From: Psammoneis japonica
Lineage: Eukaryota
Assembly: GCA_008632985.1 (NCBI GenBank)
Contig: QPGO01000181.1
Coordinates: forward strand, 1-64,000
Length of the DNA stretch: 64,000 nt
Reading direction: 5' to 3'
Part shown: positions 2,401-63,274 of the stretch, in pieces
Layout of the letters: every line of letters begins with the position of its first letter
Numbering within the stretch: position 1 is the first letter of the stretch
The notes under the pieces: model-generated
Told to the model about the DNA's origin: nothing
Databases searched by the model: none
Seen by the model: only the letters and a program-made list of their open reading frames with translations
Translations under genes and position numbers: made by a program

Positions 2401-2793
2401 GTTCACAAAGAATTAATTTATTGGTTGGGGAAACTGCCTAGAGTAGTTGTGCATTTGTCGGAATATCATGAATTCCATAGCGTCTGTCATGGCACGTTTC
2501 ACGCGTGATTACGGCGTTTTCCTGCTCAGTGTACCGTATGTACCGGTACTGTAGTGGCACCCACCCCCCAACCGAGGTGGGCCAGCTCGGAATCTTTGTT
2601 GCACTTTTTTCTGTCAAAACAAGGGCACAAAATGATTTCCACAAAAACACTACAAAATCCTCCAAATCGAGCCGCGGACAAGAAGAATCATCACCGTGAG
2701 ATAACACGAAATTCTGCATACCGCAGTACTGTAGACTCGGTGCCGGGCATACCGGTAGCGGTAATCGCATCTCATCATCTGTGCTCGCCAACA

Positions 2794-4588
2794 ATGACTA
2801 CAATGCAGCCGTCACCATCATTGCCGGCGTCGTCTCACGAAGGAGAGAATGGTGAAAACAACAGTGGTGAGACGACCCAATCATATGCGCAAGATCGCAA
2901 GCTATCCCCCCAAATTCTTCCTCACAAACCCTTGAATGGTGCTACAGTCCCACCAAATCAGGGGTACTCGTTGGACACAAATTCAATCCAACCTGAAGAT
3001 GCCACTGGGCTGCAAACTCAGTTTCAGTCTCTTGAATTAGATTCAGGAAATAGAGTTGCTGGCCCTGGCCGGAACGTTGCGGGTGTCGATGTCAATGAGG
3101 TTGACGATGAACCAAATAATGACTGTCCTGTGAAATTGTTCGTTGGACAGGTATGGGTATTACGAATTGGTTTCGTATGCGACGAAACAGTGCACTATCT
3201 TTACTCAATCTGGATTGCATTTGTCTGTTCCCGTGCTCTACAGGTGCCGAAGACCATGAACGAAGAAAACATCTTCCCCACTTTTGATTCTTTTGGCCCG
3301 CTGAAGGATATAGCTATTATCAGAGACAAGCATACAGGGCTTCATCGTGGCTGTGCATTTGTTACCTTTTGGTCTTCCACAGACGCCGAAGCTGCTCAGC
3401 AAGCGCTTCATGACAAGTTCACTTTTCCTGGAGGGAGGCGGCCAGCGCAGGTGAAGCCAGCGGAGCCTTCCGGTAAGAATGGCTTCAAATTTCAAATTCT
3501 ATGGAACTCCGAAGTAGGATGGTTCTAATGATTTTGCTTTTTTACTTAATTTAATTGATCAGTTCCAGAAAACAAGCTTTTCATTGGCATGCTTTCCCGA
3601 AAGGCTGGTGAGGCAGAAGTAAGAGAGCTGTTTGCGCCATTCGGGGAGATTCAAGAGATTTACATGATCCGAAATACTGATGGGTCGAGCAAGTGTGCTG
3701 CTTTTCTTCGATATGTCAAGCGTGAAGCTGCTCTTAAAGCTATCGAGAGTTTGCACGACAGTGTTTCGATGGACGGCTCCGCCCGTCCTCTCATAGTAAA
3801 ATTTGCTGACACGAAGCAGCAACGCCATGCCCGACATATGCGTAACACACGGCGAGAGCAGCTTCTGGCATCTATGGGTAGCGCTGGGCACGCATATCCC
3901 GGCTTTCAGGTGCGTTTGCATTAGTGAATTTTAAGAGACTGGTCTTATCCCACCTCCTCACCCAATCACCTTGTCATTGTCGTTAGCTACAGGTTCCTCA
4001 GGTCCCACCCCCCTTGGGCTTACCTCATGCGAGTCACTATTCCATTCCCCAGTACTCATCTGGGTATCACGGTACTGCTCACCCAGCTCCACCTGCTCAT
4101 CATCCTTATGTGTATGCTCCACACCACCAGTTTAGTCATGCTCCGGGTTATGGTTTTCCGAGCCAACAGGATTTGAGGGCCGCAAATCCACGTCCCAGGG
4201 AAGGTCCTGCGGGGGCGAATCTTTTTGTTTATCACTTACCGCATGATCTTACAGACAGCGATCTTGCCTCAGCATTCAATCCATTTGGGAATGTTGTAAG
4301 TGCAAAGGTATATGTAGACAAGTTCACTGGAGAAAGCAAAGGTTTTGGTACGTTCGTGCGGTAATCTTTGAGGTTGCATCGCGTTGTATGCTCTTTTGTT
4401 CTCAAAATTCTCACATTGAGCTCGCAGGCTTCGTGTCTTACGACTCTGTTATGTCTGCAGAGTCTGCGATTGAGAAGATGAATGGATTTCAGATTGGGAA
4501 CAAACGTTTGAAAGTTCAGCACAAGCGGGTGAACAGCACGGCAAGCGGAGTTCCGCACCAGCAATCACAAGGTGATGGTCAAGCATGA
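2794..4588 (+). CDS. CELF: CELF/Bruno-like RNA-binding protein with three RRMs, ~484 aa. Exons 2794-3150, 3244-3472, 3563-3909, 3987-4347, 4428-4588
   Basis: RRM1 KLFVGQ|VPK...[12 protein letters not shown]2 [10 protein letters not shown]...[12 protein letters not shown]3 [14 protein letters not shown]...SKGFG|FVSYD...[17 protein letters not shown]. Four GT-AG introns (77-93 nt) join in frame, total 1455 nt. The start could instead be the in-frame ATG at 2632, and the intron-3 acceptor is ambiguous (3987/3993/4002). Confidence 0.93.
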
Positions 4589-7509: not shown

Positions 7510-8538
7510 CAGAGAGAGCTGTCATGCACGGAGGGTCACAAGTGACTGCCCTGATTGGGGACAGACCACACCATCAGAATTCACATGCAGTGCATGCCAT
7601 GCACACACTCATCACACTGCACTGGGGGCAGGCCCCACTGGCCACCTGTGTGGCTCTTTCGTGACTGAGGCCACCAGCCCTTCAATGGCTCACCATGTTT
7701 GAAGCAACACTGCTGCCTTTTCATGCCTCCATTTGCCACAAACTCTCCCCTTTTGCATGTGCCATGAACTGTTCATTGCCCTTCACCATGTCCTCACCTG
7801 GACAATCACATCCACCAAACCACTGCACCATGACCTGGATGATCCCGCTCCACCATGCAAACACACATCCACCCCCTTCTGGAAACTGCTGCTCCTTTTT
7901 GTGGCACTTGTCATCCCTCCACCCTGCTGCTCCACCACCAACAACCCCAGCACAAAGCACCCATCTGCTTCCTCTGTCACCCCCACCTGCCTTGAGACAG
8001 CTGTTCTGACAAGGCCACATCCACAAGCTCTGCAATGCTGCACACACTGCCACCTCCCACCATGCCACCACTGCCCATCCACCCAACTTCTCTGCATTGA
8101 CCTGCTGCCACACAGCCCAGCTGTCTGCTGATGCTGACAACTTTGATGCTGCTTGCCACCGTGTAACTTCCAACCTCCCCATCACCACTGTTGATGACAC
8201 TCGACTCCCTCTAATTCATGCACCACTCTGACCACCCCGCACCCAGTGGCCACCACAAGCCACTGCTCTTCATGCATGGTGCTCTCCTCCCCCGTCCCTG
8301 CCCTGCATCTCTGATGATGAGCTCTCAGCAGCTCTCAGCAAGTGCAAACCTGGTGCTGCTGCTGGCCCATGTGCTTGCTCCACCAACCTCTTTAAAGCAT
8401 GTGCCCTCTTCTAAAACCACCACCCCAACCAAGACATGCCTTCACTGACACCTCTCCACCTTCAAGAACTTCATGGTCCTCCTCCTCCAAACTGAGTCTG
8501 TCCCACCAGAAATCCAACCCCTTGTCCCTGCCAACTGC
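7510..8538 (+). mobile_element. C-rich CRE-like non-LTR retrotransposon, 5' part (interrupted by the Plavaka-like element)
   Basis: Reads KPGAAAGP...FKNFMVLLLQTESVPPEIQPLVPANC and continues in frame after 18851 as FVALQKDPTNLNKLCPIG (ANYFVALxKD...KLRPIG-type RT N-terminal motif). Confidence 0.7.
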
Positions 8539-8551
8539 ATCAGAGGCCCGT
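8539..8551 (+). repeat. Left terminal inverted repeat of Plavaka-like element
   Basis: ATCAGAGGCCCGT, exact reverse complement of 18835-18847; one mismatch to 58153-58165. Confidence 0.85.
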
Positions 8552-9177
8552 AGAAAAGGCCTTGAGTTACAAGTCATTGAACCCCACCATCTCATGGCAT
8601 GCACGTGTGCGCCCAGATTGGTGGACCCCCCTCCAGATTAAAATCGACATTCACCCATTGGAATGACAACATTTTTGTTCATTTTCAATTTGTAGATTAG
8701 AACATCACACACATTCATTGTTCCACAACGCATTTTATTTAATTTACATTTGTTGACTTGAACACCAAAATGCCAAGTCACACGGCTCTGTCATTCCCTC
8801 AACTGAGGACAATTGCATTTCGCTCCAGCCGTAAAATGTTCATTTCATGTTGCCTGTGGCATTTTTGCCCAAATTTCTGCATTTCCGTCCTCATGATGAA
8901 TGTCGACAATTCCATGAAATTTTCCACCCTTTTCTGCTTTCCCTCCAAAACCCCCTCCTCTCCACCGAATCACAATCTTTCATTTGCACCATTCCCCCGG
9001 GCGATTGTGTTCAGGGCATTTGTCTCTTCTACTTGTGATCTACGGGTCCAATCCCCTGTGGTTTTGGTGAATCTGCGCAGAACCGCGAAAGCAGCATGAT
9101 GACAAGTCCGTGGTTTCTACATCCTCTGTTCATGCCGCGATCGCCCATGGCGGTTTGTCTCTCCCGCTGTTGCGACC

Positions 9178-12100
9178 ATGCCCCATCTCAAAGTTATGCC
9201 CAAGCAAAAGCAACGTCTCTCTTCTCACTCTGAATCATTCAGGGATGCCACCAAATGCAAAACTCGCCCATCGCACCGCTTTGTCACGTCTCCAGACCTC
9301 GACGGCTCGCTCAATGACATTTTTTTGACATCCAACGTGGCGGCAAACCTCTCTGATGATGTCAATCTTAGCTCTGACGATGACTCTGATGGCAATGACT
9401 CATCTGCTCAAGGCAACGATCATGCCAGTGCACCGTCTGCATCCAGAGACCTTGACGGGTCATGCTGGTGATCTTTCTTTTCCCAACGAAGATGATGCAG
9501 ATGCCAGTTCTTTAGACGGAAGTGATGTTTCTGTTCTTGACGACCATGCCAAAGCATTCACAAATGGTGTTGACGGTGCCTGCATGACAAAGTCCCAATT
9601 AAAAAAAATCATCGAGACGCAGCACCGCCGTCAGAAGTTCATCAAGACTCATAAATGGACACCCTCCGCTGATCTCATTGCCCTGCCCTTTGTTTGTCAT
9701 AACTGCCAGAATCGAGCCTCCCATTTCTTCATGGAAGTGTTGATGGTCAACGATGTGGTTGCCCATTCTCTTGGCCACAAAGACAGCTTTCATATGTAAA
9801 AAGTTGTGGCTGGATGTGTTTTCATCATAAAGATGGGAAGTGTGTTCTGGAGTGCCGCAAGCTGGCCGAAACCTTTTCCAATCTTTCCCAATTCGGCAAA
9901 CATCTCCATGCAATCATTGACGATTTATGCAAGATGACAGTGAGCAAACAAATTGGCAATGACCCTTGCTTCCTTCGGCTCAATGGCTTTAGATCCAAAT
10001 TGGATTTTTTTGCACAATGCCTGAGCATCGCTGCTGCCACAACGGAGTGTTGCTTTCTCCCTCACATCAATGAAGAGTTTGGCAATTTTTCGATGCTGGT
10101 CGACCATCATTTTTTCTGGCTGCAAAAAGAGGAAACAGTTCGTGCTGTTTTGCAACAATGTTTTGACCCTGATGAACACGGATCAGAAGTTGAAGGATGG
10201 GAAGGTCACCAAGAAGATCCTCGCCGATCATCTGGAATGTGTCAAGGCTCACATTGACACTCATGCCACGGCAAAAGGCATCACACAAAAATGCCAAGAA
10301 TTGGTTGAGCATGAGCTCCATTCCACCTTCAAGCATTCCTGCAAGGACACGAATTGTCTCAAGTTCCGCAACCTGGCAATTGTGCGATCACATGTCCGCG
10401 ATCTCACCTGTCCACACCTTTCACGTGAGGCCAAGGCAAAGTTTGTTTCTTCCACCAAGAGGAGGAAGAAGAGCAAGGAGTCCTCTAGTGTGTCTGCTGG
10501 TTCTCTGGCACCTCCGCCCACTTCATCCAAGAAAGACACCAACCAGAATCCCGTTGCTCAGCCAACCGGCCCCACGGCTGACAGCCCACCGTCCGCCAAT
10601 CGCTCCATCAGCACACTCACCTCCCAGTTGCAACCTTTGGCTGACGACACAGTCAAGGCGTTGTCAGACGGAGAGTCATCGTCGACCGGTGAATCATCGA
10701 CTGATGACAACCCCATCCAGAATGTTCCCATCGCCGGTGCTGTGGGTCCATCCCTGGGAGGAGTTGCTTCTTCAGCATCTCCAGTGAAGCCCAGCACATC
10801 GAGTGGCACCATGGCTTCCTCGTCAATTGATGATCGGTTCCCCCATGGTTGTTGTTGCCACTTTGCATCCCTTGCTGACATCTCCAGGTGTGCTCCTTGC
10901 GTTTGTGTTTTTTATGATCCGGACGACGATGATGATGACAACGAGCAATCTGCCAATCGGGAGTTAAACCTGCATCATTCTCCAGCAGACCATTGCTTGC
11001 TTGATGATCTACGACATCATCTCCATTCCTTTGTGACGATGCAACCACTTCCTTCCACCATCAATCATTGTCGGGAGCCAGTGGTTGTCCCACCCAGAGC
11101 TCAATGCATTCAGGATGACGCTGCCATTTTGCGCTCGTCCTCACATCTTTGGCAGAAACACTTTGGTGTGCTCAAACACGGCTATTCCAATGCCAATCGT
11201 GATGGGAAGATCATGTGTTACGAGAAAAACTATGATGATCGGTCCAAGCAACCAGAGAAATGGGACTGGATTGATTTTGGCTGCTGTGGTCAGTCGCACG
11301 ATGTGCTCAAGAACGGCAAGAAAGTCCCATCACTGCAAGTCAGTTTTGGAATTTTTGAGAAAGAAAAAAACGTCGTCACCTGCAATCAGATCAAGTCTGT
11401 GCTGGCGGACACATGCGTTTCCATGCAGAGGTGCCATGATGAGCTAGAGACGGAGCACTTTGGCAATCCTTGACCCTGCAACAACACTGCACGAACTGCA
11501 ATGCATGGGGCCACGCTTGCACTGGGCTGGGTTGCAAAGTAGCAAGGAATGAGCTTGGCACTGTCCAAGCTAAGATCATGCCTGATGGTGTGCAGATTCA
11601 TCCAGATGATCGAAATTGTGTTTTTCATGGATGCACCAAGACCGGAGCCCTGTGTTTTTTCATCCCAGACAAGTTGGGGAATGTCATTTCTGTCAAGTTC
11701 TTTGCCAACAGCCGGAAACGTGCAGGCGAATATTTTGACAAGCATCTGACGTTACCACCATTGAAGACAATGATGCTGAAGCATGTCACCACCATAAATT
11801 GTGCCTGCAAGGAGTTCTCTTTATCGTACAAGGGTCCTCATGGTCCACCAAAAGATTTGAACCACCGCCATCCCAAGAACATGATTCTCGATGATCATTG
11901 CCCATGCAAGGAAAAGGCACTCGACAAGGCTGGTTCGATTGTCATGGACAGGTGGGAGTTTCCCACCTCCTGCATTTGGGATTTGTGGTTGTCAATGGGG
12001 ATCACCATCCTGTTCTGACTCCGAGATGTGCTCGGAATCCACAAGGTTGTCAAGATGGCAATCATGGCTTCTTGTCAGACTGGATTCCACCGGTTCTTCC

Positions 12101-14092
12101 ACATTGGCATGGAGTGCGGGGACAAGTTGACTGAACCCAGTTCCGATCCTGCACTTGTCTGCTGTCAACCAGCCATGAAGCTGTTTGGCACTGCCACCAG
12201 AGATGCAGGAGTTGCTCCACACTGTCTGAACCCCAGCGGCTGTAATTTTGTTGAGACGTGCTGCAAAGATTCCTCTGCCACTGGAGAGGAAATCCAATGA
12301 ATCCACCTGCGCAAGAAGCAACCAGAAGCACACCTGCTGGGTCTCTTTGTCCAATTTGGAGAAAGAAGTTCTCCCCGATGATGCTGACATTGAAGACATT
12401 CTCGGTGCCGGAGAATCTGCCGCCAACGACGCTGAAACAGACCTTGAGGGAGAGGGCGATCTCTGTCTTGATGGCCTTGAGATGTCATGTGCCATGGATG
12501 AAATGGTGGTTGTGATTCTTGATTTGTTGAAATGGATTGACGATCACACCGGATCTCCGGATTTCCACCATGCCATGCTGGAGACATGTTTCCGGCTGGC
12601 AATCAAGAAATTCCCAAGAGGAACTGACATCAATGAGTTTCGTTTAATGTTGGTCATCCAAATGCTAGTCAGTGCAGGAATCATTGTTCATCCCCACCCT
12701 CATTTGAGAAATCTTGTTTATCCTGCATCCAAACTCGGTGCATCGAAGCAGTTAGAGCACTTGGACCCCAATGATTGTGTGGCGTGTGCTAACTTGCTGA
12801 TGGTCAAACATGGAATAGAGCATCACGGTGGCTCCGGCAGGGAATGTGTCCTCTGTGATTGGTGTGCTCCAAATTGTGTTGAAGGCATCATTAAAGAGCA
12901 TTGCGCTCATGGTCAGCACATTTTCATGCTCATTGGAGATGATGCTGCCCCCAGCGTGAAGCAACATGGCACTGGACATTGGGACGCTGTTCCCATCATG
13001 ACAGAGGGGTAAGTTTCAACACCGCACTTTGCTTTGGATGTTTTCTAATTGCCATTTTTGTTCTCCGACTTTGAACAAACTAGAGTGCCTGGGGAAGACA
13101 TGGGTTGTTTGGAAAATCAAGATGCAGCAGCAGAGGAAGAAGAATTTTCTCAATCCCTGAATGATTTTGGCTCAGATGTTAACAAGTCAGCGTCACAACA
13201 AGAATTGAGTTATCCCAAGGATGAGAGAGCCATCCCTCCCAACGGTCCTGACAAACACTGTGACTCTGAATCGCCGGACTTCAATGACATGAGGGAATCA
13301 CCTCAAGATGGCCCGGATCTCTCAGTGCAACCGAAGAACACAAAGGCATTGTTTTTGTGCATGACACAGATGAACGACATTGATTCTCTGTCATTCACAA
13401 ATGTGCTTAATGACATCAACGATGACTTGTTCAGTGGAAATTCCAAACTGAGATCCGACGCGACAAGGACACTTGCCTGTCGTGATGTGGTGCATGATGA
13501 AACCAACTGCACCATTGATTGCAACTTTTACACAGCTTCTCTGAGCAATGGTCACAATGCCCGTCACCTCAACTGCAATGTGTGCAGTCCCACATTTTGC
13601 AACGAGGTCATCACAAAGTTCGGAAGGGACTTTGAGGAAATCAACTTGGATTACTTTTGGATACAAAAGGGTTTGTTGAGCAACAGATTCAACCCACGCT
13701 TCTTCTTTGGGAGGACGTTGCCTGAACTGTCAAATGCAATGAAAGTTGGCAGTGCCATCAGCATCCCTTTTAACATCAAGACATTTGTTGCCTGTGTCTT
13801 GCATGAGGAGTCCATTGTCAAAATGTGCAATGCCCTTTTTCCGGCGGATGTGCGCATCCTCTTGCATGAACCGCACCATTGCAGTTATTTTGATGATGAA
13901 CAGTGCAAACAAAAGCTGAATCTAGATTATGCACGTCAGGTGAACAAACACCCAACCAGTGTCACAAGCAGGGAAGTGAGCCAGTCAGTTCCGGAATGTG
14001 TTTGCCTTCAAGCCAAAGAGGTTTGGAAGTGGTTGAGAAATGACAATCACCATGTCGGTCTTTGCAAATGGATTCACCTCGTAAAAAAGTAA
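9178..14092 (+). pseudogene. Large transposon cargo gene with frameshifts and stops: acidic/Ser-rich N-terminus, TET/JBP-like HxD segment, helical ECxLC segment, SAM-methyltransferase-like C-terminus
   Basis: Chain of ORFs 9178-9471, 9356-9799, 9814-10257, 10070-11473, 11470-12300, 12248-13012, 13049-14092. A GTAAGT...CTAAT...TAG intron at 13009-13083 joins the last two in frame. The 5' part recurs inverted at 62130-63274. Domain calls are motif resemblance only. Confidence 0.55.
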
Positions 14093-14132
14093 GAAGATAT
14101 GATGATTTGGTGTCCAGCTCATCCAGGAACAT

Positions 14133-15032
14133 TCACGCCGACGGTGCCACTTCAGCTGGCATTCTTTGGACACAGAAATGGCAAAACACGTTGAGATGGC
14201 AATCGCAGTGATGACCAATGAAGTCGGAAAGACCGTCGGACATAAAAACATGCAAGGCGACCAGCCGGTTCCTCACAAAGAGCAGCCCCCCACCAATGTT
14301 TGAGCCACATTCATGCATGTCGAGTCAAATGATCGTCCCATTAACATGCCTCATCAAGTCACAGTTGTGGCTTTTTGCAGGTGGAGAACAGATGTGTCAC
14401 GGGGCATGCAAATGCACATCTGTGTCATCAAAGGCTGCCAATGAGACAGATGGAAGACGAGGTAGGAGATCATGCCTTCGTCCATCCAGAGTCAAATCCA
14501 AATTTATGTTGAAGTCATGCAACCAAAACTCCATTGTGCAACAATCGTTTCGATGCTCCTCATCACAGAAGATGCAAGTGTTGGGAACCCAATCTTGAAA
14601 ATGTGCTTCTCTAATGCATCTCTGAGCAGGGGTAATGCAATCGCCGCCCCGTCTCTTTACAGGCACGAGATGATGACTGCGTGTGGACAGGAAGTGTCGG
14701 AACCTTGGGTGTTGATGGAAATGTCTCCTGTTTGTGTCGATGCTCTTGCAGAACTCCTCGTTGGAGTCAGAAAAATTTTCTTCACAACAGAAACATTTGT
14801 CCATTGTTTCCCCAGCTTCCATCATCCGGCGAATCTTTCTCCTTGGATTGCCGTCCCAGAATTGATCGCATCGGCAATGGGGACCATCCGCGATTCTCTG
14901 CCACCCAATGGTCACTGCGTGATAAAGCAATCGGTTTGAAATTTGCAATGCGGCGAGAGTTTGGACATCTGTTGTTTCCAAGAAGGAGAAATGTGTTGCC
15001 ACACAGTGGCACGCCAACATCCCAGCATGCAA
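14133..15032 (-). pseudogene. Transposon cargo ORF remnant, unknown function
   Basis: ORFs 14397-15032 and 14133-14318 share a frame inside the TIR-bounded element and converge on the large cargo gene. Confidence 0.35.
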
Positions 15033-15333
15033 TTGTCACCCATGCTGGCAAAAGGTTGTGGTCCTTTTGTTTTCGTGGTGAGGATCACACCCATTGTTTG
15101 CATTTTTGCATGCCTTGTCCATTGAGTTGTCCATTGGGTTTTGTCAAGTGTTGGTCCGATTGTTGTCAGTCGGTGAAATGAAAAGAACACTGACGCACAA
15201 CCAATCTGGAAAGACAACTGACACACGACTGTCATGTGGTCGACAGACACCACCACTTCACAACAATCGCCGCAATCCGAATTTGAGAAGAAGACCATGT
15301 CAGAGGCGCACTCAACTGTTTCCTTGTGCGGAT

Positions 15334-16298
15334 GATGGAGAAAGTGTTGGTTTACGATCACGCTGACATTCCTTGTAATTCGGAGGAACAGAGAGCAAAG
15401 GATGCAAAGGCTGCAGTTGCTAGATCTGTGCGAGTGATGGCAGAAAAATGTTTTGCTTTAGCGCATGCAATGGATCAAATCAAAAGAGCTGTCGCAAATC
15501 CAGCCACCACAGTTCACGAAATAAAGCTGCACTGTGTTCAGCAAAATCAAGGCATTGATCAAAGCACATCATTCAGAAAATGATTGTGCCATTGCAGTTG
15601 AAGATTTCAGCAATGCGGAAATGTTTTTCCAACGAGTTCTTCATGGTGACCACTTCAATGCAAGAGGACAGGGATTCCCAATCTCCGTGGAGGGATGTCA
15701 ACGACCCAAGTGCATGCCGTGTGGCCATGATTCACTGTTGCTTCTTAAACACATGCAGGCTGAGTCTGAAAGAGAAGAGTCTGACACAGATGAGGGAGCA
15801 GTGGCTAGGGAGCATCCTGCCACAGATTGCATTGTCAGGTCCATCCACACCCGTGCCATGCCATGCATCGAACCATGCCAAGCAATGTCATCCGGTCCTC
15901 CCTGTTGTGAGACACCCTTTTGCATGCAACCACAGCGGGACCTGAAGGAGGCACTTTCCTCTTTTTGCGAAGCCCACTTGGAACTGCAAAGGAAAGGTGA
16001 AGCCTTGCACCAATGTTGGGATTCTTTGTTTCATGAGAGGCTGGGCGTGGATCAAATGAGGAGAGGGATCTGGTCTGCGATCCACACCATGAACGGAGAA
16101 GCAGTCACAAGAGAAACGTTCCTGCATTTGGCAATCCAAATGGAGGAACGATTGTTGCACTTCGACCAGACGTATGGCAGCCCTGAGTTTCAGCATGCAA
16201 TGATGGTTGCCAGGCAACATTTCATGGAACAGGACGACTGGATGGAATGCAGAGACGATTGTGGTTGGCACCATTGGATGATTTCCATCCACAGATGA
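15334..16298 (+). pseudogene. Transposon cargo ORF remnant, helical, unknown function
   Basis: ORFs 15326-15583 and 15534-16298 overlap with one frameshift; protein-like acidic/helical composition. Confidence 0.4.
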
Positions 16299-17369
16299 AG
16301 TCTTGTGACTTCTGGTCACCGAATGTTGGCCCTTGTACAAGTCAGGTGCGCATGCGCTGGCAAACACCACCCAAGTTTACAATCATGAGGGGAGGCTCTG
16401 CCTGCAATGCCTTCAAATCTTCCAAGAGAAAGGACAACATGTCGTGGTGAGCCTGTGTGTTTGATGAACACGGGGGCTTGCCCGATTGTACGTCTTTGTT
16501 CACATTCCTGTTCTCATCGAGTGTGCCACCCGTGCCATCCTTGTCTGTGCTCGGTGTGAACCCCAGGTGATGCCAGGTGCAATCACGCTCATGCTCATGC
16601 CTCTTGGCAAGAAGAATGCAGAACAACCAGGGTTCGAGGGGACACCTTTGACAGGCATCAGTCCCCTGTTTGATCATTGTACAAAGCGATTGGCAACAGC
16701 AAGTCCTTCTCACAGTCAAAGTCATTGGGGAGGGCATCGCATGTGTCGGAGTGCCATTTGTTGGACATGATCTCACCAAGATCATGGTCATTGACAGGAA
16801 CACACTTGTGGAAACGTTCCTGCAGGGACTTGTTCACATTGAGATTGTGCTCGTCATCAAACATTGAGTGGGCAAGCAAATCTCTCAACATGTCCAGCAT
16901 GCGGAAGCAAGTGACTTCCCATCCACCAATGATGCAAGCATCGGGCTGGGGCAGGAAAACTTTCTTGTGGAGTTTCTTCACCAACAAGTCCTGCCCAAGA
17001 CACTGGGAACAATCGAATTTCTGCTTCTTGCAAAATCGGCACAACAGGGTGAGCAACTTCCCATAGAATTTATGAGTGGCACCGGAATTGTCACACAGCG
17101 TAATCGGCTCCAAAGAGGCTTCCTCCAACAGTGCAAAGGTGGGTGGATCAGGTGCCTCCCCGTGCAAGACATCGGAGTCGGCATTGCTGGTGGTGGGGAG
17201 GATGCCGGGGGGTGGATGCTGGGGCAAGGTGGATTCTTCACATGCATCCACCGTGGAAGAATGCAAAGAAGCAGCAGGAGGAGTGCCAGGGAACATTTCG
17301 TAAAGAGAGGAATCATTGTCGTCACGCTCATCATCATTGCAATCCTTGTCCTCCTCTTGCTCTTGCTCT

Positions 17370-17412
<43 letters not shown>

Positions 17413-17446
17413 CCTCCTCCTCCTCCTCCTGAGTCATCATCTCCAT
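16270..17446 (-). pseudogene. Plavaka-like transposase, N-terminal half, truncated at ~16270
   Basis: Motifs LLLPIALYNDQ/TGTDACQRCPLEP...WHHLGF...HHDMLSFLLEDLKALQ...GDQKSQDFICG resemble the Plavaka transposase family; the homologous + strand copy at 60400-62130 extends further. Confidence 0.72.
17350..17430. repeat. Compound microsatellite (CTCYTG)n + (CTC)n encoding EQ/E repeats in the transposase N-terminus
   Basis: Directly visible; copy 2 (60600-60625) has only a short Glu run at this position. Confidence 0.9.
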
Positions 17447-18049
17447 TTAGGTCCATGCTGTGATTTAGTGCTTCATCATTCTCAGATGCGGAAATGGACA
17501 ACTGACAAGCAATTTGCTGCTCTTGCAATGCAAAAATGGCGGCTTGCAACATCTGGCTCAATTGAGTTGTGGCAGATGCACGGGGACGGGCTGCATTTTG
17601 CAAACAGTGGTGGCGACGGTGGCAAACAGGCATGCCAAGCTAAGAGTGCGATTGGAGATGAGGAAGGTGAAGACACAGGATGAAACAATTAGATGCTTGT
17701 TCACAACCATTTGTTTGTGTGCAGGTGTCAGATTGATTTTTGAATCAAATTATTTAGTGTGCACCCAGTTGATTTTTGAACAGGAGACACTGGGCGTGGT
17801 GGCAATGGCCATTAGAGAGTTGGCCACAGGGAGGCAATTGGACATGAGGGCATGCACACATTCAGAAATTAAAGATGACATTTTTTGAATTGGAGAGAGG
17901 ATCCATTTAAATTTCAATGCAAATGTCCAGCCAAATAAAGAAACATTGGTGAAAGACAATGTTCAGGTGAGCAGAAATTTGTGCTCGGAAATGGAGAAGG
18001 ACAACCGTCACCCACACGTTGTCCACAAGACTGAACCACATCCATCAAC

Positions 18050-18472
18050 ATGCTTGCAGCACGTGCACATGAGCACACACCAGAAATGAAAACACAGCGG
18101 CAGCAGCGGAGGACGATGGTGCATGTGGAGCGGGAGTTGAGCTCAACCGAGTGGATGGCGGATGAGGCAAAGGTGATGGAAGACATGGCAAAGGTGAGAG
18201 ATTATGCAAAGGAAACATTGTTCCTCAGTGCAACACTTGCATTCGACGAAAAGGAAATGGAGGAAACGGGCATGCTCTGCCGAGATTATGAACAGAACTG
18301 CGGCCCCAAGATGATGCATGGCCTGCTGAACGAACTGCCTGAGGCAGAGCAAAAAACATGCCTGCACCACCTGTGGCTTACGATGAAACAAAAAAAGATG
18401 TGTCAGGAGTGGCCAGCAATTGAGAGGTCGAATGCGTGCCAGGCACAGCAGGACAAGTTCCACGGTGAGTGA
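18050..18472 (+). pseudogene. Terminal accessory ORF of the Plavaka-like element, divergent from the transposase
   Basis: MLCRDYEQNCGPKM...QEWPAIERSNACQAQQDKF matches 59555-59776(-) MLCRDYEHNCTPKM...QEWPAIKRSNACQAEQDKF; copy 2 continues further (59492-58589). Confidence 0.55.
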
Positions 18473-18834
18473 TGACGGAGGGTGAAACAAGGACAGCAAA
18501 TGCGATTGCTGACACTGCTTTTCCTGCCGCAAACAAAGCTCTTTGTGCATGCTGCGATGAGAAAAGTCAAATCCAATGAAGCAACTAGTTTGGAGTCATC
18601 AACTGATTGGGTGGCACCCCACTCATTGGGATTGATGACTGTTTTGGAAAGTCTGCAGACATTTGTTGGTTGGTGGACATTTGTTTATTTTTAATCACGA
18701 CCAATTGTGGTAAAAAGTCGTGATTCACATTAAATCGCCTTGGTTCATCATAAACAAATGTGCATGCACAGGCTCTCACAAATGCCATCATACACAATGT
18801 CCATTGGCATGACCACATAAGACAATTCATGGAA

Positions 18835-18847
18835 ACGGGCCTCTGAT
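18835..18847 (-). repeat. Right terminal inverted repeat of Plavaka-like element
   Basis: ACGGGCCTCTGAT; ~70 bp of subterminal sequence is also shared with the copy-2 end at 58153-58230. Confidence 0.85.
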
Positions 18848-18851
18848 TTGC

Positions 18852-21900: not shown

Positions 21901-22399
21901 TTCTCAATCCAAATCACGCCGGCATCACACTGGATGCTGAACACCAGTGTGGTGGGCAAGGTTGCCGCGGTGCACCGGTGCAGCAGCATCCACTCTCTCT
22001 CCAGCTAGAGAGAGAGAGCAGTCTCCAGCAACGTAAAAAGCACAAAATGATTGTGGACGCCTGTAGAATCTACATGTTTTTGTGCTGAAACTGTTGCCAT
22101 GTTCACACAATTTGTGCAAAAATAGACTTGACTGTTAACAGGCAAGATGGTTCAAGACTTCAAGTCAAGTTTCAAGTTATTTCAAGCTCACGCTCCAACT
22201 CTAGCCAGCATGGCAAAAACAAGAACTCAATTCGGTTTTTTGCTGGTGCGTGATTTTGGAGCAGGCAGACTTTTGGGAGTTGCCAGCTGGCAGCAGCATC
22301 TGCTGTAGAGCAGTGGAGCTTCCCCCTGCACCAATAAAAAAATGCATTGGAAAGTGGACATCACATGGTTAATGCAGTCGTACGAACAGGGGGCAGTTG

Positions 22400-23175: not shown

Positions 23176-23305
23176 CGTCGGCCGGCGAACGATTCAAAAA
23201 AGTCCTTTTTACTACCGTACACGTTGGACACAGCGAAATAATAACATAGGCCTCACTCAGCAGCACCTACAGTACATGACTTGACATGGTGGAAAGACGT
23301 AAACG

Positions 23306-56039: not shown

Positions 56040-58152
56040 GTTGTCTGTTGAAAGAGTGCTTGGTCAACATGGAATGATGGACTTGGATTGAAAGTTGTGA
56101 CAACATGGAGAACAGGAGAGATGCACTCTGAGCTTGGGTCAATCATCACAATGGCCAGGGCAAGCTGAGCAAGCATGTGCAACTCGTGTTGGCAAACATC
56201 AGGATGTCACATCATGAGAATGAACACAACACTTGTCATTTGAGCAGTGATGAGGATGAGCATGAGACAGAATGGCAGAAAGTGGAAATCCTGCCAAATG
56301 GGATCAAGATGGATGATGTCTAACTCTGCAGGCTTGTGCACCCATCATCAGTTGGCAGCGTCCCTGCAACTTTGCCAACTCTTGTGCATTCTTCTTTGCA
56401 GAAGTTTCCCATTTGCATGGACCAGCTCAGTTGGAGCAACAGCATCACTCAGAGTGCAAGATCTCAGAAGCACATTGCATTGGTGGACCAGGCAGAGGTT
56501 TTGCCAGAGGTGATGGCTACAATCCTCAAGGTGGCGGAGGCCATTGAAGGGGCCATCATGGCAGTCATCAAGAATGGAATCAAAGATGTGGTGCTGTGAT
56601 CAACAGCACAGATGTCAGCAACCCAACTCATGCATTTTCTGAAGATGAGTGGCACAGGTTAAATTTCAGTGGTGGCCAAGCTTGTGTCATGCAAGCTTGG
56701 GAGGGTGTGAACACACACAGCCAAGGAAATGGTCATGGCATGCCCAACCAGCATGGCAATCAAGGAAGTCCCGGTGGTCAGCAGGTGGCAGCTGCATCCC
56801 AGACTGTCAGTGACACAGTGGACCAAAAACAGCTGGTGACATGCAGCAGTGACAGTGGACGCGGCAGAGGACTTTGTGCACATTTTGGCACTGTTGATGT
56901 CATTGTTGCTGCTGCCATCTCAACCCCACTCACACAACAATTAAGTGAAAAGTCACAAGGTCTCTCAACATGATGCATGTCTCGAGTGACATGGCACCAG
57001 GTCATGTGTCCCAAAACACATGGCACTTGTTGTGCAGGAGCAAATTGGAAGCTTGTGGAGCCAATGAGTGAAGCATGTGAAGCAAGTCTGTTTCTTGAAT
57101 TGCATGGTCATGTTAAAGAAATTCCAGTTGTGCGACACTGTGCAGTGTGGACAGACCCAAATGCTGCAAGTGAACACTTGCTGGTTGGTGATCAGAGGTT
57201 GTGGTTTGGACAATGAATGGCACATTCCCTTGCCAACCTGAGTCAGTTGCGAGTGCACAATGTCCCATTCAATGATGACCCTCACAATTCTCAAGACAAG
57301 TTTGGCATTTCCATGGATGAAGGATGAAGTGTTTGTCCTTTCTTTTGTTGGTGTCTTTCAAATCTCATGCACCCACCAAATGGGAAGAGAAGAACTTGCT
57401 GGTGATTGTGCTTGCAAGTGACACTTAGAATCCATCAGAGGTTGATGTGGGTTTTCCAAACAAGACTCATGAGCAGCAGGAGATGTGTGCCATTCAATCA
57501 TTGACATTGCACATGCAAAAGTTGGAGGCATCAGAAATGCAGTCCAAAAGAGTAAAGTCAATGGCACTCAAATGGGGTGAAGTCAAAGAGACCATGGCAA
57601 GCATGTCACCAGTTCATCATTTCCAAACCTTTTGTAACTGCATGATCGCATTTGTGACATTTGTGTGCACTTGCAGGGAAGATGTGGATGTGCACAAAAG
57701 ACAGACATTGGAGCTCTGGTCTGAGGACAGGCACTCCAAGATGACAGCTGATGAGTTGGCAATGAAATGCAGTGTTGGACTGGAAATGGCAAAGGACACA
57801 ATGTCACAACTCAACAAGGTGTGCAAACAGCAACTCAACCACTGTCAAGATGAGTGGGAATGGATTGTCTGAATTTGCACAGAAAAAGACCAAAGGGGAT
57901 GTGGTTTGTAGATGCCCTCTTTTCAAAAGTTAAGTCTGCACTCTTGGTGACACTTGTGTGAATGCGCATGTGCTCAAGGCAAGTTTGTCAAGGTCATCCT
58001 GATGATGGCCAGGTCAGAAGCTGGGAGATTGTTGGCAGAGTTCATGGACAATGCAGGAGCACCAGAAATCTTGTTGACAGATGGAGCCAGAGAGTTCACT
58101 AGAAAAAGCATGGAATTTGTTGGGCATGCAAGGTGAGTGCATGTGCAACTTC
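56040..58152 (+). mobile_element. Decayed Ty1/copia element, gag-protease-integrase, cut by Plavaka-like copy 2
   Basis: gag WTWIES; protease region THGTCCAGANW...LWFG...HSL; integrase RHSKMTADELA...AGRLLAEFMDNAGAPEILLTDGAREF. Confidence 0.75.
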
Positions 58153-61100
58153 ATCAGAGGCCTGTTTCCATGAATTGTCTTGTGGTCGGACCAACGGACA
58201 ATGTTGCAGACAGCATGTGTGAGTGTCTGCACACAAATTTATTTATGATGAATCATTGCCATTTAACACAAATCACACACCCATTTGCCACAAATGAGTG
58301 TGATTAAAAACAAACAAATGTCCATGTAAACCAATGAATGTCTGGAGACATCAACGAACAGTCATCAATCCCAACAAGTGAGCTGCAGTTCAATCAGTTT
58401 ACGATGCCAATCAAGTTGCTTTGTGGGATTTCACTTGGCATGTTGTTGCCAACTGGGTGACAACTGAATGCAGTGTTGGGATTTGTTTTCAATCCTCACA
58501 GTCAAAGTCAATTGGTTGACTTGCATGTTCAAACAATCGTTTCCATTCTCCCATCCATTCATTGCATGTTGCTGCCACTGATTTAATCTCAACCAAACCA
58601 CCACCAACTCCAGTTCATAGATTTTGGCACAGTTGACCTGGTGGTCATCTTCATCATCCAAGCCTTCTTGTGCTTCTTGTGCCCCCATTGATCTTGCTCA
58701 GTTGCAATGGCTCTGCAGAGCTCTTCCCACTGGCCGAGGCATCTGCTTGCAACATCTTGCTTGATCTCCATGACCATGTCAACAAAAAATTTGTTAGCCT
58801 TTGGCAACCACCCTTTGCTCTTCCTTGGTGTGTTGTGCTTCCTTAGTCCTGTGCCTCCATCTGTGTCTTTTGGCTTCCCCGCCGTGAAATGATTGAGCAT
58901 CCTGACAACCTTTCTCTTCTTGCTTGATGCATCCGCATCATTTTGGATGTCAACAAGCACTTTTGTTGCCTTGGTCAGAGCTGTGACTCATGCTGCAGTC
59001 TTTGGCTCATCTCTGATCTTCTTGACCATCGCATCCTGTTTTGTGATGGACTCTTCCCTTGTGTCCTTGAACTTCTGTTTCAGTTCTTGCACAGACACAC
59101 CTTCCTCCGATGGCTCTTGTGGATCTCTGGAGCAGCACAAACATGCTCTTGTCCTGGTTGTCCTTCTCCTCAGCTGTTGCGAGGTCTGGCATGATGGTCT
59201 CCCACAAGTCGTTGCTTCCCTCTTGGTCCATGGGGCCTCCATCATCAACCAAATCCATGTCGTAATCCAACATCAAAGTCCCATCCTTGTTGCTGCTCTT
59301 GCAGTTGGCATGCCATGCATCACAGTTGTTCTTGAGGAGCAGCATGTGGGCAAATGCCTTGGCGCATGCTGTGCTCATCCTCTTGTCCTTGGAAATGCAC
59401 TCTTTCCAGCATGTGTCTCCGACAATCAAATGCAGCATGCAGTCACAGAACACTGTCTGCAAAGCTGGGTTTTGTTGTTGCAGTGTGCACAAAGAGCTTC
59501 ACATGTTGCAGGGAAAGCAAGCAACAACACTGTCAGCAGTTTCAATGGCTGCTCTCATTGCACCCTCTGTTTGCACTCACTGTAGAACTTGTCTTGCTCT
59601 GCCTGGCATGCATTTGACCTCTTAATTGCTGGCCACTCCTGATGCATCTTTGTTTGTTTCATGGTTGGACACAGTGGGTGGTGCAGGTGTGTTTTTTGCT
59701 CTGGCTCAGGTGGTTCCTGCAGCATCTTGTTCGTCATCTTGGGGGTGCAATTGTGTTCATAATCTCTGCAGAGCATGTTCTCTCACCTTCGCCATGTCCT
59801 GCATGACCTTGGCATGATCCACCATCCATTCGGTTGAGCTCATCTGCCACTCCACAATGACCATTGTCCTCCACTGTTGCTGTGGTGATTTTTCTGGTGT
59901 GTGCTGAAGCACACTGAAGCAAAGTGATGGATGTGGTTGAGTCTTGCAGATGATGTGCATTTGACAGTTGTCTTTTTCCCTTCTGCATGTTTTTTTACTT
60001 GCCTGAAAAGGGTCTTTCCTGCACATTTTTTTATTTGGCTGTACATCTGCATTTGAATTTAAACAGATCCTCCCTCCAATTCAAAACTTTGCATCTTCAA
60101 TGTCTGAACATGTGTGTGCCATGATGTTCAATGTCTCTTTGTGGCCAACTCTCTAACAGCCATTGCCATCATGCCAGTCCAGTCTCATTCAAAAATCAGC
60201 TGAGTCTCCACTCAACAATGTGATTCAAAAATCAATCCAACACCTGCACGCCAATGAATGGTTGTGAACAAGCATCAAATTATTTCATCCTGCTTCCACA
60301 GCCTTCCATTTCCAATTGGACTCTTTGCTCAGCATGACTTTTTGCCACTGTCACTGCTGACCCCGGCAAAATGTAGCCTGTCCCAGTGTGTCTGCCACAA
60401 CTCAATTGAGCCAGTTGTCGCAAGCTGCCATTTTTGTTTTCCAAGAACAGCAAATTGCTTGTCTGTCATCCACAGCTGCTTCTGAGAAAGACAAATCAGC
60501 AAATCCCAGCACAGACTTCAACGGAGATGATGACTCACCCAGTTTTCCACCTTCAGAAGACCCAGAGCCCACACCCCCCTCCCAACAAAGAAGCAGAGGA
60601 GATGGAGGAGGAAGAGGAGGAGGACAAATGTGATGATGATTCCTCTTGCTGCAAAATGTTCCCTGGCACTCTTGCTGCTTCTTTGTCCTCTCCCCCGGAT
60701 GAGACATCTGAAGAATCTACCCTGCCCCTGGATCCACCCACCGCACCTCCCACCACTGCCAACTCAGATCTCTTGCACAAGGAGGCACCTGATCCACCAA
60801 CCTTTTCACTGGCGGAAGAAGCTTCGTTGGAGCTGATTGTGCTGTGTGACAATTCCAGCACTGCCCATCAATTTTACAGGCAGTTGCTTGCCCTGTCACG
60901 ATGATTTCACAAGAAGCGGAAATTTGATTGTTCCCAGTGTCTTGGGCAGGACTTGTTGGTGAAGAAATTCTGCAAGAAGGTTTTCCTGCCCCAGCCTGAC
61001 ACTTGCATTGTTGGTGGATGGGAAGTCACTTGCTTCCACCTGCAAGACATGTTGAGAGATTTGCTTGCCCACACTTGATGTTTGATGATGAGCACAATCT

Positions 61101-63274
61101 CAACATGAACAGGTCGTCATGCATGCACATTTCCACAAGTTTGTCCCTGTTGACGAGCATGATCTCAGCAAGATTGTGTCAAACAAATGGTGCTCCAACA
61201 CATGCGATGACCTCTCCCAGGACTTTGACTGTGAGAAAGACTTGCTCTTGCCAATTGGCTCATGCACTGATCAGACAGGGACTGATGCCTGTCAAATGCA
61301 TCCCCTTGAACCCTGTGCATTTTGCATTCTTCTTGCCAAGGCATGTGCGGGAGCGTGATTGTGCTTGGCATCACCTTGGGTTCATGCCAAGCACAGCAGA
61401 CAAGGGTGGGGTGAGTGGTGCACTTGATGAGAATGGGAATGTGAATGAAGATGATTCACAATGACAAGTGGGCGAGTCTTCTTCAAACATGCAGGCTTGC
61501 CATGACATGTTGTCTTTTCTCTTGGCCCTTCAGGATGGTAAACTTGGGCAGTGTTTGCCAGCTCATGTGCATCTTCCTTGTACAAGGGCCAATGTTTGGT
61601 GATCAGAAGTCACAAGACTTTGTCTGCGGATGGAAAGCAACCAATGGTGGCAGAGCCAGTTGAGTGCATTGCTTCTGCATGTGTTCCGTCAATGATGTTA
61701 CAAACACTTCCCATCCAACCAATGAGCTTGGACTTTCTTGTTCTCCTGTCAATGTGAAGATTGTGCCCCATCTTAACAAGCCAGCACTTGGATGCACCGG
61801 CTCCACTTTAGCAGTTAGCAAGGACAATCCATGGATGGCTGCCTCAAGAGACAACAGAAGCTTGTGCGGTGGCCCTTCTTTCCTGTTAACACACAATGCA
61901 CCCGCTGTGAAATGCATTTGATGGTGTCAATTTCAGAAACAATCCATGGGGTGTGTTTTCAGCAATGGCTGACAATCACCTTCATTCCTGGGAAGCGGGT
62001 GGTGTGGAGAACATCACACAAGTCTTGCACTTTGGACTTGCCAAGACAAAGAAGGAAAACTTTGAGATGGAGCTGAAAGCTGTCATTGGAAGCTGCAGGT
62101 CCATGGCCTTGGCACAATGCCCCAGAGTTTGCTTAAGTTTTGATCGCACAATTGCCAGGTTGCAGAATTTGACCCGATTTGTGTTCTTGCAGGAACACTT
62201 GAAGGTGGAGTGGAGCTCACGTTCCACCAACTCTTGGCATTTTTGTGCCACACCTTTCTCCAAGGCACACAAGTGTCGATGCAAGCCTTGACACATTCCA
62301 GATGTTCAGCAAGGATCTTCTTGGTAACCTTCCCATCCTTCAACTTCTGCTGCATGTTCATCAGGGTCAAAACATTGTCACAAAACAGCACAAACTGCTT
62401 CCTCTTTTTGCAGCCAGAAAAAACAATGGTGGACCAGTGGCAAAAATTACCATGCTCTTTATGGACGTGAGGCAGAAAGCAACAGTCCGTTGTGGCAGCA
62501 GCGATGCTCAGGCATTGTGCAAAAAAAATCCAACTTGGATGTGAAGCTGGTGATCTGCAGGAAGCAAGGGTCCTTGCCAAGTCAATCATGCACTGTCATC
62601 TTGCACAAATCATTGATGATTGCACAGAGATTTTTGCCAAATTGGAAAAGATGTGAAGCTGGTGATCTGCAGGAAGCAAGGGTCCTTGCCAAGTCAATCA
62701 TGCACTGTCATCTTGCATAAATCATTGATGATTGCACAGAGATTTTTGCCAAATTGGAAAAGATTGGAAAAGGATTCGGCCAGCTTGCGGTGCTCTAGAA
62801 CACACCTCCCATCTCAATGGTGAAAACACAACCAGCAACAACTTTTTGAATGATGAAAGCAATCTTTGTACCCAAGAGAATGGGTGACTGTGTCATCAAC
62901 CATCAACACTTCCATGAAGAAAATGGGAGGCTTGATTCTGGTGGTTGTAACAAACAAAGGGGAGAGCAATGAGATCAGCAGAGGGAGTCCACACTCGGAA
63001 GTCTCAAGAAAGTGCTGATGGTGTAGCTGTGTCTCAATGATTTTTTTTTTAAATTGAGCCTTGGTCTTACAGGCGCTGCCAACACCATCAGTGCACACTT
63101 CAGCTTGGTTGTCAAGCACAGAACCATCGCTTCCATCAAAAGAATCATCATCTGCATTGTTTTCGTCAGAAAAAGAAAGATCACTGGCATGACCATCAAG
63201 GTCTCTGGATGCATGCGGCATCCTGGCATGAGATTTGCTTTGGCTGGTCAAGTTGTTGCCATCGGAGTCGTCAT
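58153..63274 (+). mobile_element. Plavaka-like element copy 2, inverted, internally deleted, one TIR only
   Basis: Starts ATCAGAGGCCTGT; accessory ORF on - (59950-58589); transposase on + (60400-62130, including GDQKSQDFVCG and MADNHLHSWEAG); 62130-63274 is the reverse complement of ~9380-10390. Confidence 0.82.
62538..62761. repeat. Near-perfect tandem duplication, 2 x 112 bp
   Basis: GATGTGAAGCTGGTGATCTGC...CCAAATTGGAAAA twice; the only difference seen is C62606 vs T62718. Confidence 0.92.

Follow-up and report, generated by a model that had tools for sequence, protein, structure and literature searches.

The 64,000-nucleotide stretch of Psammoneis japonica DNA analyzed here (assembly GCA_008632985.1, contig QPGO01000181.1, positions 1 to 64,000 of the forward strand; hereafter the window) carries a degenerate element, termed copy A, that is probably a Plavaka-type DNA transposon with two internal cargo genes, X and Y. 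Its order is left terminus, X (+), Y (+), transposase remnants (−) and right terminus. A first-pass annotation, made from the letters of the sequence, had described the X–Y region as transposon cargo resembling a fused DNA-modification enzyme, in which a TET/JBP-like dioxygenase, a helical domain with an ExxLC motif and an S-adenosylmethionine (SAM) methyltransferase followed one another. The features of the element, in positions of the window, are the following.

8538..18848, + strand: copy A, a degenerate Plavaka-type DNA transposon of 10,311 bp
8538..8551, + strand: left terminal inverted repeat, CATCAGAGGCCCGT, with TG before it
9503..13012, + strand: gene X, a pseudogene whose true start may lie further upstream
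10985..11745, + strand: TET/JBP-like double-stranded beta-helix region of X, corresponding to residues 1–180 of the relative P0001 plus the upstream extension of longer relatives
11599..11616, + strand: HPDDRN, the HxDxxN motif (H, D and N each in 19/19 relatives)
11707..11715, + strand: NSR motif (N in 20/21, S in 18/21 and R in 20/21 relatives)
11749..12925, + strand: helix-hairpin-helix (HhH), AADT-like (aGPT-Pplase-like) region of X, corresponding to P0001 residues 182–577
12842..12856, + strand: ECVLC, the E-x-x-L-C motif (E in 27/29 and C in 28/29 relatives)
13009..13083, + strand: 75-nt candidate intron, in frame (GTAAGT..CTAAT..TAG), whose removal would connect X with Y, read from the sequence
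13100..14092, + strand: open reading frame (ORF) Y, 330 codons, uninterrupted from first Met to TAA, with a class I SAM-methyltransferase-like fold
13646..13660, + strand: LDYFW, after strand 4 of Y in the place of motif IV (D and W invariant, 16/16)
14150..17446, − strand: convergent Plavaka-like transposase remnants, with homology support only for 16234–16948
18835..18848, + strand: right terminal inverted repeat, ...ACGGGCCTCTGAT(T), with TG after it
58152..63272, − strand: copy B, a diverged, internally deleted and inverted copy without an equivalent of 10391–16255

For identification of relatives, the translation of 12230–14089, with the letter X standing at its two TAA codons, was used as a HMMER query in an exhaustive search of 1.84 billion representative proteins. 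At E ≤ 0.001, 57 relatives were obtained (best E 2e-80, P0001), which places the protein strings quoted in the first-pass annotation beyond chance. All of those strings are present in the window: QIHPDDRNCVFHGCTKTGALCFF (11593–11661) and SVKFFANSRK (11689–11718) in the stop-free frame 11443–12018 (frame 1), GRECVLCD (12836–12859) in the frame 12230–13012 (frame 2), and KALFLCM (13343–13363), FYTAS (13526–13540), HLNCNV (13565–13582), LDYFW and ISIPF (13757–13771) in the frame 13049–14092 (frame 2). They do not form the one continuous protein that had been proposed; the dioxygenase string stands in a different frame from the ExxLC and methyltransferase strings, and a TAA separates the latter two. 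The relatives themselves split into two groups, matching query residues ∼80–260 (X) and ∼350–550 (Y). Proteins of the X group, such as P0001 (605 aa), P0006 (1135 aa) and P0007 (783 aa), were almost always matched at their own C-terminus, and the Y group consists of separate proteins of 160–780 aa (e.g. P0009, P0016, P0018, P0042, P0046 and P0049).

By tblastn, family X (P0006 and P0001) is collinear with 9503–13006, and P0001 is 58–68% identical to the window copy of X. Reading-frame changes were located near 11524–11527 and 12284–12285, and in-frame TGA stops at 11471–11473 and 12016–12018. At 9781–10097 the homologous frame holds four stops and another frame is open, so additional frameshifts probably lie there. 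P0001 has 19 Tyr residues aligned with the window; X has Cys at ten of these positions and His at five. X also shows five R-to-C and five R-to-H changes. Tyr-to-Cys/His changes predominate in the decay of the gene. Because of the frameshifts, the TGA stops and the loss of 15/19 Tyr to Cys or His, the window copy of X is a thoroughly decayed pseudogene. It retains HPDDRN, NSR and ECVLC.

Intact relatives carry both domains of X in a single uninterrupted ORF, for example at positions 1–1794 of L001, one of six loci with family X relatives (L001–L006) found when metagenome contigs were searched with alignment A5. Family X is a eukaryotic family of about 600–1200 aa in which a double-stranded beta-helix and an HhH domain are joined in one polypeptide. 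Two further alignments were used, A1 of 15 aligned relatives and A2 of 32 family X sequences. Viral contigs held no relative of X. Pfam gave no match for eight window ORFs, nor a relevant one among 30 relatives or all 32 A2 members at E ≤ 10; no PHROGs family was matched by more than one member of A2, and the A2 profile found only chance matches among PDB sequences. The X family has dozens of metagenome members that are invisible to Pfam and hence presently without annotation.

For structural comparison, an AlphaFold2 model of P0001 was built with a 32-sequence alignment (mean pLDDT 83.6, pTM 0.79) and searched against 48,161 representative chains with VIA-align, which is independent of Foldseek and divided the model into residues 1–177 and 182–577. 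The best match of residues 1–177 was NgTET1 (Z 7.0, rmsd 3.8, 130 residues aligned, 8% identity), followed by human TET2 (Z 6.7, rmsd 3.5, 148 aligned, 15% identity), FTO (Z 5.3, 124 aligned, 8% identity) and CcTet (Z 4.7, 137 aligned, 9% identity), a Z of ∼7 lying within the range that the tool flags as possibly mere common arrangement. Below CcTet came a long run of AlkB-type and other 2-oxoglutarate (2OG) oxygenases. When the top 992 Foldseek chains were re-scored, only 10 reached Z ≥ 4.6, all of them NgTET1, FTO or CcTet, and the next chain stood at 3.3. Foldseek itself gave no match for the P0001 model in PDB or BFVD at E ≤ 0.001, with TET/JBP entries appearing only at E ∼2, and the TET/JBP profile PF12851 matched none of 32 relatives even at E ≤ 10. 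The model predicts for the N-terminal domain of X a double-stranded beta-helix fold of the type found in nucleic-acid 2OG/Fe(II) oxygenases. Since the Z values are modest, the argument for X rests on folds combined with motifs. The HPD of X lies at 11599–11607 and is followed three residues on by the conserved Asn, a HxD...Asn pattern that TET2 presumably shares. The Arg of NSR may be the residue that binds 2OG; a second candidate, Arg 627 of P0006, is conserved in 17/17 sequences.

The second part of the model, residues 182–577, was matched best by PaMx11 gp46, a 5-PmdU glycinyltransferase (8z2m; Z 6.8, rmsd 4.6, 219/287 aligned), in a class of helical domains for which Z below ∼13 may show common arrangement only. 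The next matches were AGOG (Z 5.4 and 4.8), DUF2419 (4.6), Mag1 (3.8), AlkA (3.3) and NTHL1 (3.1), and the domain is accordingly modeled with an HhH DNA-glycosylase-like fold. For comparison of motifs, a set of phage amino acid:DNA transferases (AADTs, alternatively named aGPT-Pplase clade 2) was assembled from M6 gp51 (Pfam PF18724, 'ADDT, amino acid:DNA transferase', E 1e-46) and eight diverse phage homologues. All nine contain E-T-x-x-C, with Glu four residues before Cys, 25–66 residues from their C-termini; in family X the Cys of E-x-x-L-C stands ∼50 residues from the C-terminus, and the spacing of Glu and Cys is the same. The only segment that hhalign paired between the C-terminal part of X and the nine AADTs, 14 columns long, is the E-x-x-C motif; the pairing fell short of significance (P 0.22), and forcing a global alignment gave nothing meaningful. 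M6 gp51 and ViI gp247 are inactive when the Glu or the Cys is mutated, and the Cys is proposed to attack C6 of 5-phosphomethyl-dU, the resulting exocyclic methylene accepting the amino acid (Lee et al., PMC8989533).

For ORF Y, the AlphaFold model of the window protein had a mean pLDDT of 66.7, with a well-ordered core at residues 80–250. Foldseek returned five matches at E ≤ 1e-3, every one a SAM-dependent methyltransferase. Among the top 50 VIA-align matches listed, all 50 were SAM-methyltransferase-fold chains (Z 8.3–10.0); 79 chains had Z ≥ 8, and scoring of Foldseek's own matches gave Z up to 10.3. The strand order agrees with that of class I enzymes, and the model supports a seven-stranded Rossmann-like class I methyltransferase fold, which does not imply cofactor binding or a particular substrate. 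All 16 Y family sequences have T, H, D and W unchanged, and the window ORF retains all six invariant residues of the family. Y matched none of PF01555, PF02384 and MT-A70, and the ESM Atlas gave no usable match for the window ORF; a word-indexed protein search returned nothing for Y alone and only two extra proteins for the Y profile. The Y relative P0042 ends in an MSL3-type chromodomain-like module (Pfam), which hints at a possible chromatin role for the Y family.

The uninterrupted state of Y has to be read against the composition of the window. Over the whole 64 kb the observed/expected (o/e) ratio is 0.18 for TpA, 0.36 for CpG and 1.68 for CpA/TpG. Because TpA is so strongly depleted, TAA and TAG are rare (266 and 194 occurrences in 64 kb, against 1464 of TGA) and long open frames are cheap; an open frame by itself is little proof in this window. 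TA o/e is 0.11–0.16 across the genes of copy A versus 0.46–0.57 in host genes. The value for Y is 0.16, so that Y shares in the mutational decay and its openness is no evidence of function.

The ends of copy A were set by 13/14 inverted termini and by the point at which similarity to copy B stops. They were located by searching for the inverted right end, guided by the published terminus type of PlavakaB, 5'-CATCA..TGATG-3' with a target site duplication of 2–3 bp (Kojima, PMC12730594). The left end is the reverse complement of the right end, exact over 13 bases (blastn-short, whole window, E 0.054); the right end reads ...ACGGGCCTCTGATT, with its last base at 18848, and agrees with the left end in 13/14 positions. 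The left terminus shares 11 bases with that of copy B, which reads CATCAGAGGCC, and at the point equivalent to the right terminus copy B reads ...CTCTGATG. Copy A thus has the CATCA..TGATG termini reported for PlavakaB elements. TG flanks it on both sides and may be a 2-bp target site duplication, for which the evidence is weak, TG being the commonest dinucleotide. By blastn, 9379–10390 of copy A corresponds to 63272–62141 of copy B at 78–84% identity and 16266–18847 to 61652–58153 at ∼75%; copy B lacks most of X, all of Y and more. Hidden Markov models of X and Y found no match in copy B and no further copy of either gene in the window.

Between Y and the right terminus, the minus-strand ORF 16658–17446 matches residues 396–487 of P0069 (BLASTP E 7e-6, 32% identity over 97 aa), and a second collinear tblastn segment of P0069 lies at 16635–16234. 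P0069 is a 1296-aa ORF that is convergent to the family X gene in the metagenome locus L002. Its nearest ESM Atlas clusters, commonest in diatoms and basidiomycetes, carry Pfam Plavaka (PF18759) in 34–99% of members with scores of 0.96–0.97; P0069 itself has no Pfam Plavaka match at E ≤ 10, and phmmer gave no link between P0069 and the window. A KDZ transposase was considered and rejected, the only match being to CxC6 at E 0.54. A CTC/CTG-rich trinucleotide run at 17343–17432 encodes poly-Glu/Gln (EEEEEEQEQEQ...) in the minus-strand transposase-like ORF. Taken as a whole, the explanation we favor, and consider fairly probable, is that X and Y were the internal cargo of a now dead Plavaka-type cut-and-paste transposon in the nuclear genome of a photosynthetic stramenopile.

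These results leave the first-pass annotation largely right, though not in every detail. Its view of the region as transposon cargo agrees with the Plavaka-type termini, the adjoining Plavaka-like transposase remnant and the absence of the region from copy B. All three of the folds it had read from motifs, a TET-like double-stranded beta-helix, an HhH domain like that of phage hypermodification enzymes with ExxLC and a Rossmann methyltransferase, reappear in the model-based comparisons; VIA-align recovered each of them, and Foldseek recovered that of Y and none for X at E ≤ 0.001. The HxD and DYFW motifs on which it relied are conserved. DYFW does stand in the position of a DPPY-like motif IV, with D and W invariant, but the prolines are absent, and the distal His that the earlier reader could not see is likewise not found as a conserved residue after HxD. 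The proposed fusion of three domains holds for the dioxygenase-like and HhH domains, which are joined in X; Y is a separate ORF. The label of pseudogene applies to X. Sequence profiles connected no part of the region with a methyltransferase family or with Tet_JBP or ADDT of Pfam. The amended picture is one of two genes, an incomplete dioxygenase triad and non-canonical methyltransferase motifs.

Comparison with known systems places X between two enzyme groups. With the TET/JBP enzymes (NgTET1, human TET2, CcTet and JBP1/2; PF12851) X shares the double-stranded beta-helix fold, TETs being the best structural match, and its HxD is invariant with Asn three residues on; it differs in having no PF12851 match at E 10 and no distal His, in being fused to an HhH domain and in belonging to an ochrophyte alga rather than a fungus. 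TET/JBP genes are carried by KDZ transposons of fungi and are reported in fungal Plavaka and other transposons (PMC12730594), and those of Agaricus and Gymnopus Plavaka elements are, like X, Plavaka cargo (PMC12730594). With the phage AADTs (M6 gp51, ViI gp247 and PaMx11 gp46) X shares the HhH glycosylase-like fold, gp46 being the top match, the E-x-x-L-C near the C-terminus with identical spacing, and the pairing of an AADT-like domain with an enzyme predicted to make 5-hydroxymethylpyrimidine. X shows no profile similarity to them; unlike them, it is eukaryotic and transposon-borne, has its AADT-like domain covalently fused to the oxidase-like one, and has no kinase for 5-hydroxymethyl-dU (5-hmdU) found alongside. 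Phage TET/JBP–AADT systems were reportedly predicted by Iyer et al. in 2013, in a paper whose abstract is said to name stramenopile algae among the carriers of such systems. In the literature searched, no Plavaka or TET/JBP cargo in diatoms was found, and stramenopile TET–AADT proteins may have been described earlier by Iyer et al. (2013, 2014).

The closest published parallel in algae concerns giant Plavaka elements of red algae, whose accessory genes PAG1–3 supply a 2OG oxygenase and a DNA methylase as cargo (bioRxiv 10.1101/2025.02.11.637652). Both these and the window element are algal Plavaka with 2OG oxygenase(-like) and methyltransferase(-like) cargo proteins, and for the red-algal cargo, too, a role in modifying the DNA or chromatin of the element itself has been proposed. 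The architectures differ, in that a ParB-like domain is the fusion partner of the red-algal oxygenase and an AADT-like domain that of the oxygenase-like part of X; the red-algal methylase is an N6-adenine DNA methylase with SET (PF01555 and PF00856), whereas Y has no Pfam family. Among class I SAM methyltransferases, TrmB/METTL1 and SABATH-type O-/N-methyltransferases have the same strand order and fold as Y, which departs from them in having LxL(G/C)M(S/T) for GxGxG, no acidic residue where strand 2 ends and D-[YW]-[FY]-W for (D/N)PP(Y/F/W).

The results above show how X and Y are related to other proteins, which folds their domains take, which motifs are kept, and how the element is built and has decayed; the substrate, the chemistry and the biological role proposed next for intact copies are inferred. 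Acting on DNA, the dioxygenase-like domain would turn the C5-methyl of thymine, or else of 5-methylcytosine, into a hydroxymethyl by oxidation. The Cys of the HhH domain, helped by the nearby Glu, would then attack C6 of that pyrimidine and so let a nucleophile join the C5 methylene, as for phage M6 gp51, and the pyrimidine so modified would be bulky. A possible task of Y is to add a methyl mark or to tailor one. The element would probably profit by escaping or manipulating host silencing, as has been proposed for TET-carrying fungal transposons. We think it reasonably likely, on balance, that the element is a dead Plavaka-type transposon with two cargo genes, of which intact X carried out such a two-step C5 modification of pyrimidines.

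Several observations weigh against this reading, in addition to the modest Z values, the non-significant hhalign comparison and the weak duplication already noted. Neither X nor Y has a sequence-level link to any known family in Pfam, PHROGs or the PDB profile search. No His column of at least 75% occurs in A2 between HxD and the HhH domain, and because the distal His after HxD is not conserved, the complete iron site of X is unproven, though an unconventional residue may serve as the ligand. The only other invariant His (16/16), H544 of P0006, lies ∼197 residues upstream of HxD in a region that is absent from P0001 and hence outside the model; iron binding and catalysis by X are thus unproven by a model of P0001, which is without the upstream region. 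For the phosphate leaving group, phage AADTs depend on a 5-hmdU kinase; no kinase family was matched among element ORFs of at least 130 aa, the size range that the scan covered, while roughly 500 N-terminal residues of X are without an assigned fold. With no conserved distal His and no kinase found, X is kept out of Pfam Tet_JBP and ADDT and is treated as a new family that most likely works as a fusion of both. In Y, L(G/C)M(S/T) stands after strand 1 in place of the GxGxG SAM loop (motif I), strand 2 ends YT(V/A)SL without an acidic residue, and motif IV, D-[YW]-[FY]-W, has no proline and departs from (D/N/S)PP(Y/F/W). The link to a transposase is one pairwise E of 7e-6, on which phmmer was silent, and the pairing of X with Y is so far seen only in the window element.

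The last point bears on whether X and Y are one gene or two. A TAA at 13010–13012 lies between the two frames; in A1, 14 of 15 relatives have their C-terminus no more than a few residues away from it, and none runs into a Y domain. Family Y was found in 0/6 related metagenome loci, three of which extend 1.7–5.2 kb downstream of X, and in L002 only ∼280 bp lie between X and the transposase ORF. Because none of the six loci contains it, Y looks like an addition specific to the lineage of the window element. The alternative is that X and Y are, in this lineage, a single spliced gene in which the candidate 75-nt intron would remove the TAA and yield a three-domain fusion. Its attraction lies in the sequence at the junction, where a perfect GTAAGT over the X stop codon is followed by a CTAAT branch-like site, a pyrimidine tract and TAG, in a length that is a multiple of three. 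Splice-site-like motifs (GTAAGT, GTAAGC, GTAGGT and GTATCA) occur in the window at 13009–13083 and at or beside the family X stop codon in L001 (∼1792), L002 (∼2776), L005 and L006 (∼1361 and ∼3015), and P0004 extends past the usual end with an acidic tail resembling the Y N-terminus. Intron-blind gene callers may cut family X proteins short. Set against the relatives that stop near the TAA, the separate Y proteins and the six loci devoid of Y, a spliced fusion appears rather unlikely. X and Y are thus most probably two genes rather than a triple fusion, with the double-stranded beta-helix and HhH domains fused in X only.

The activity of X can also be read differently. X could be a self-contained active demethylase instead of a hypermodifier, on the model of TET plus TDG or plant DME/ROS1; its TET-like domain would oxidize 5-methylcytosine and its HhH domain, as a glycosylase, would excise the oxidized base, erasing the silencing marks of the transposon. 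The matches of the HhH domain to true HhH glycosylases (AGOG, Mag1, AlkA and NTHL1) would fit such an enzyme, as would the CpG depletion of the window repeats, which makes cytosine methylation a plausible host silencing mark, and fungal transposon TET genes have been read as anti-methylation devices (PMC12730594). The best match is nevertheless the transferase gp46 at Z 6.8, with glycosylases at 5.4 or below, and conservation centers on the Glu and Cys that belong to the transferase motif, so that excision seems to us unlikely, if somewhat less so than the remaining alternative. In that alternative the folds are real but non-catalytic, X being a DNA- or chromatin-binding accessory and Y a Rossmann protein that no longer binds SAM. 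The missing conserved distal His after HxD, the lack in Y of a Gly-rich loop, of an acidic residue following strand 2 and of prolines in motif IV, and the absence of any profile match to enzyme families are all in keeping with this, and inactive methyltransferase domains are known in transposons such as DIRS1 (PMC4738411). The invariant positions, however, coincide with the catalytic ones of the model enzymes, namely HxDxxN in 19/19 and Glu and Cys in 27/29 and 28/29 sequences, and T, H, D and W of Y are invariant. Dead domains usually lose catalytic residues, and we regard this non-catalytic account as improbable.

Two-step pyrimidine modification by intact X is the reading retained here. Around the element, three stretches of the window contain host genes.

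2509–3525: RRM protein, in a stretch with normal dinucleotide content
23782–27267, + strand: 1162-aa protein with leucine-rich repeats and a response-regulator receiver domain, an intact host gene
27669–28958, − strand: aureochrome (bZIP + LOV), an intact host gene; its LOV matches solved aureochrome LOV domains at E 4e-46

A fungal origin of the window is ruled out by the aureochrome gene, which marks the host as a photosynthetic stramenopile (ochrophyte). Normal dinucleotide content was seen only at these three genes. In 2-kb bins, joint depletion of TpA and CpG is confined to sequence outside host genes: the host-gene bins (2001–4000 and 22001–30000) have TA o/e 0.50–0.61 and CG 0.75–1.13, and all remaining bins have TA 0.04–0.26, CG 0.05–0.59 and CA/TG 1.3–2.3. 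The segment 30001–64000, ∼34 kb, is extremely CpG- and TpA-poor and holds several long open frames without a Pfam match (e.g. 51394–53070 on the − strand, 559 aa), with a strong AT skew at 34–42 kb; it probably consists of further decayed repeats. CA↔TG is the most frequent aligned dinucleotide difference between copies A and B (80 cases). The metagenome loci L001–L006 are likewise TpA-poor (TA o/e 0.27–0.57, CA/TG 1.2–1.6), and the bias is therefore not peculiar to the genome of the window. The pattern resembles what a mutation process aimed at repeats would leave, combining CpG deamination with an A:T-to-G:C arm at TpA. We know of no described equivalent of TpA-directed repeat mutation, a point on which the literature was not searched. 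The repeat-restricted loss of CpG and TpA in the window is unusual and worth study by itself. In a broader and distinctly speculative form of the proposal, which we hold to be improbable as matters stand, ochrophyte (diatom-type) Plavaka elements would encode, within one polypeptide, a full route from thymine to hypermodified thymine by way of TET-like hydroxylation and then AADT-like group transfer, some stramenopile algae would contain an undescribed hypermodified base in their nuclear DNA, and the repeat-specific TpA-to-TpG/CpA hypermutation of the window would be the footprint of that chemistry or of a host response to it.

Transposons that rewrite DNA marks are known in fungi, through TET/JBP, and lately in red algae, and the window element extends this theme to photosynthetic stramenopiles. 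The novelty lies in a eukaryotic protein family, unrecognized by present profile libraries, whose members fuse an oxidase-like domain directly to an AADT-like one; AADT-like domains are otherwise known only from phage thymidine-hypermodification pathways. The findings suggest that Plavaka-type transposons of this kind once chemically marked DNA. Should intact copies prove active, they would represent phage thymidine-hypermodification chemistry in eukaryotes for the first time and would suggest that algae of ecological importance contain DNA bases as yet unknown.

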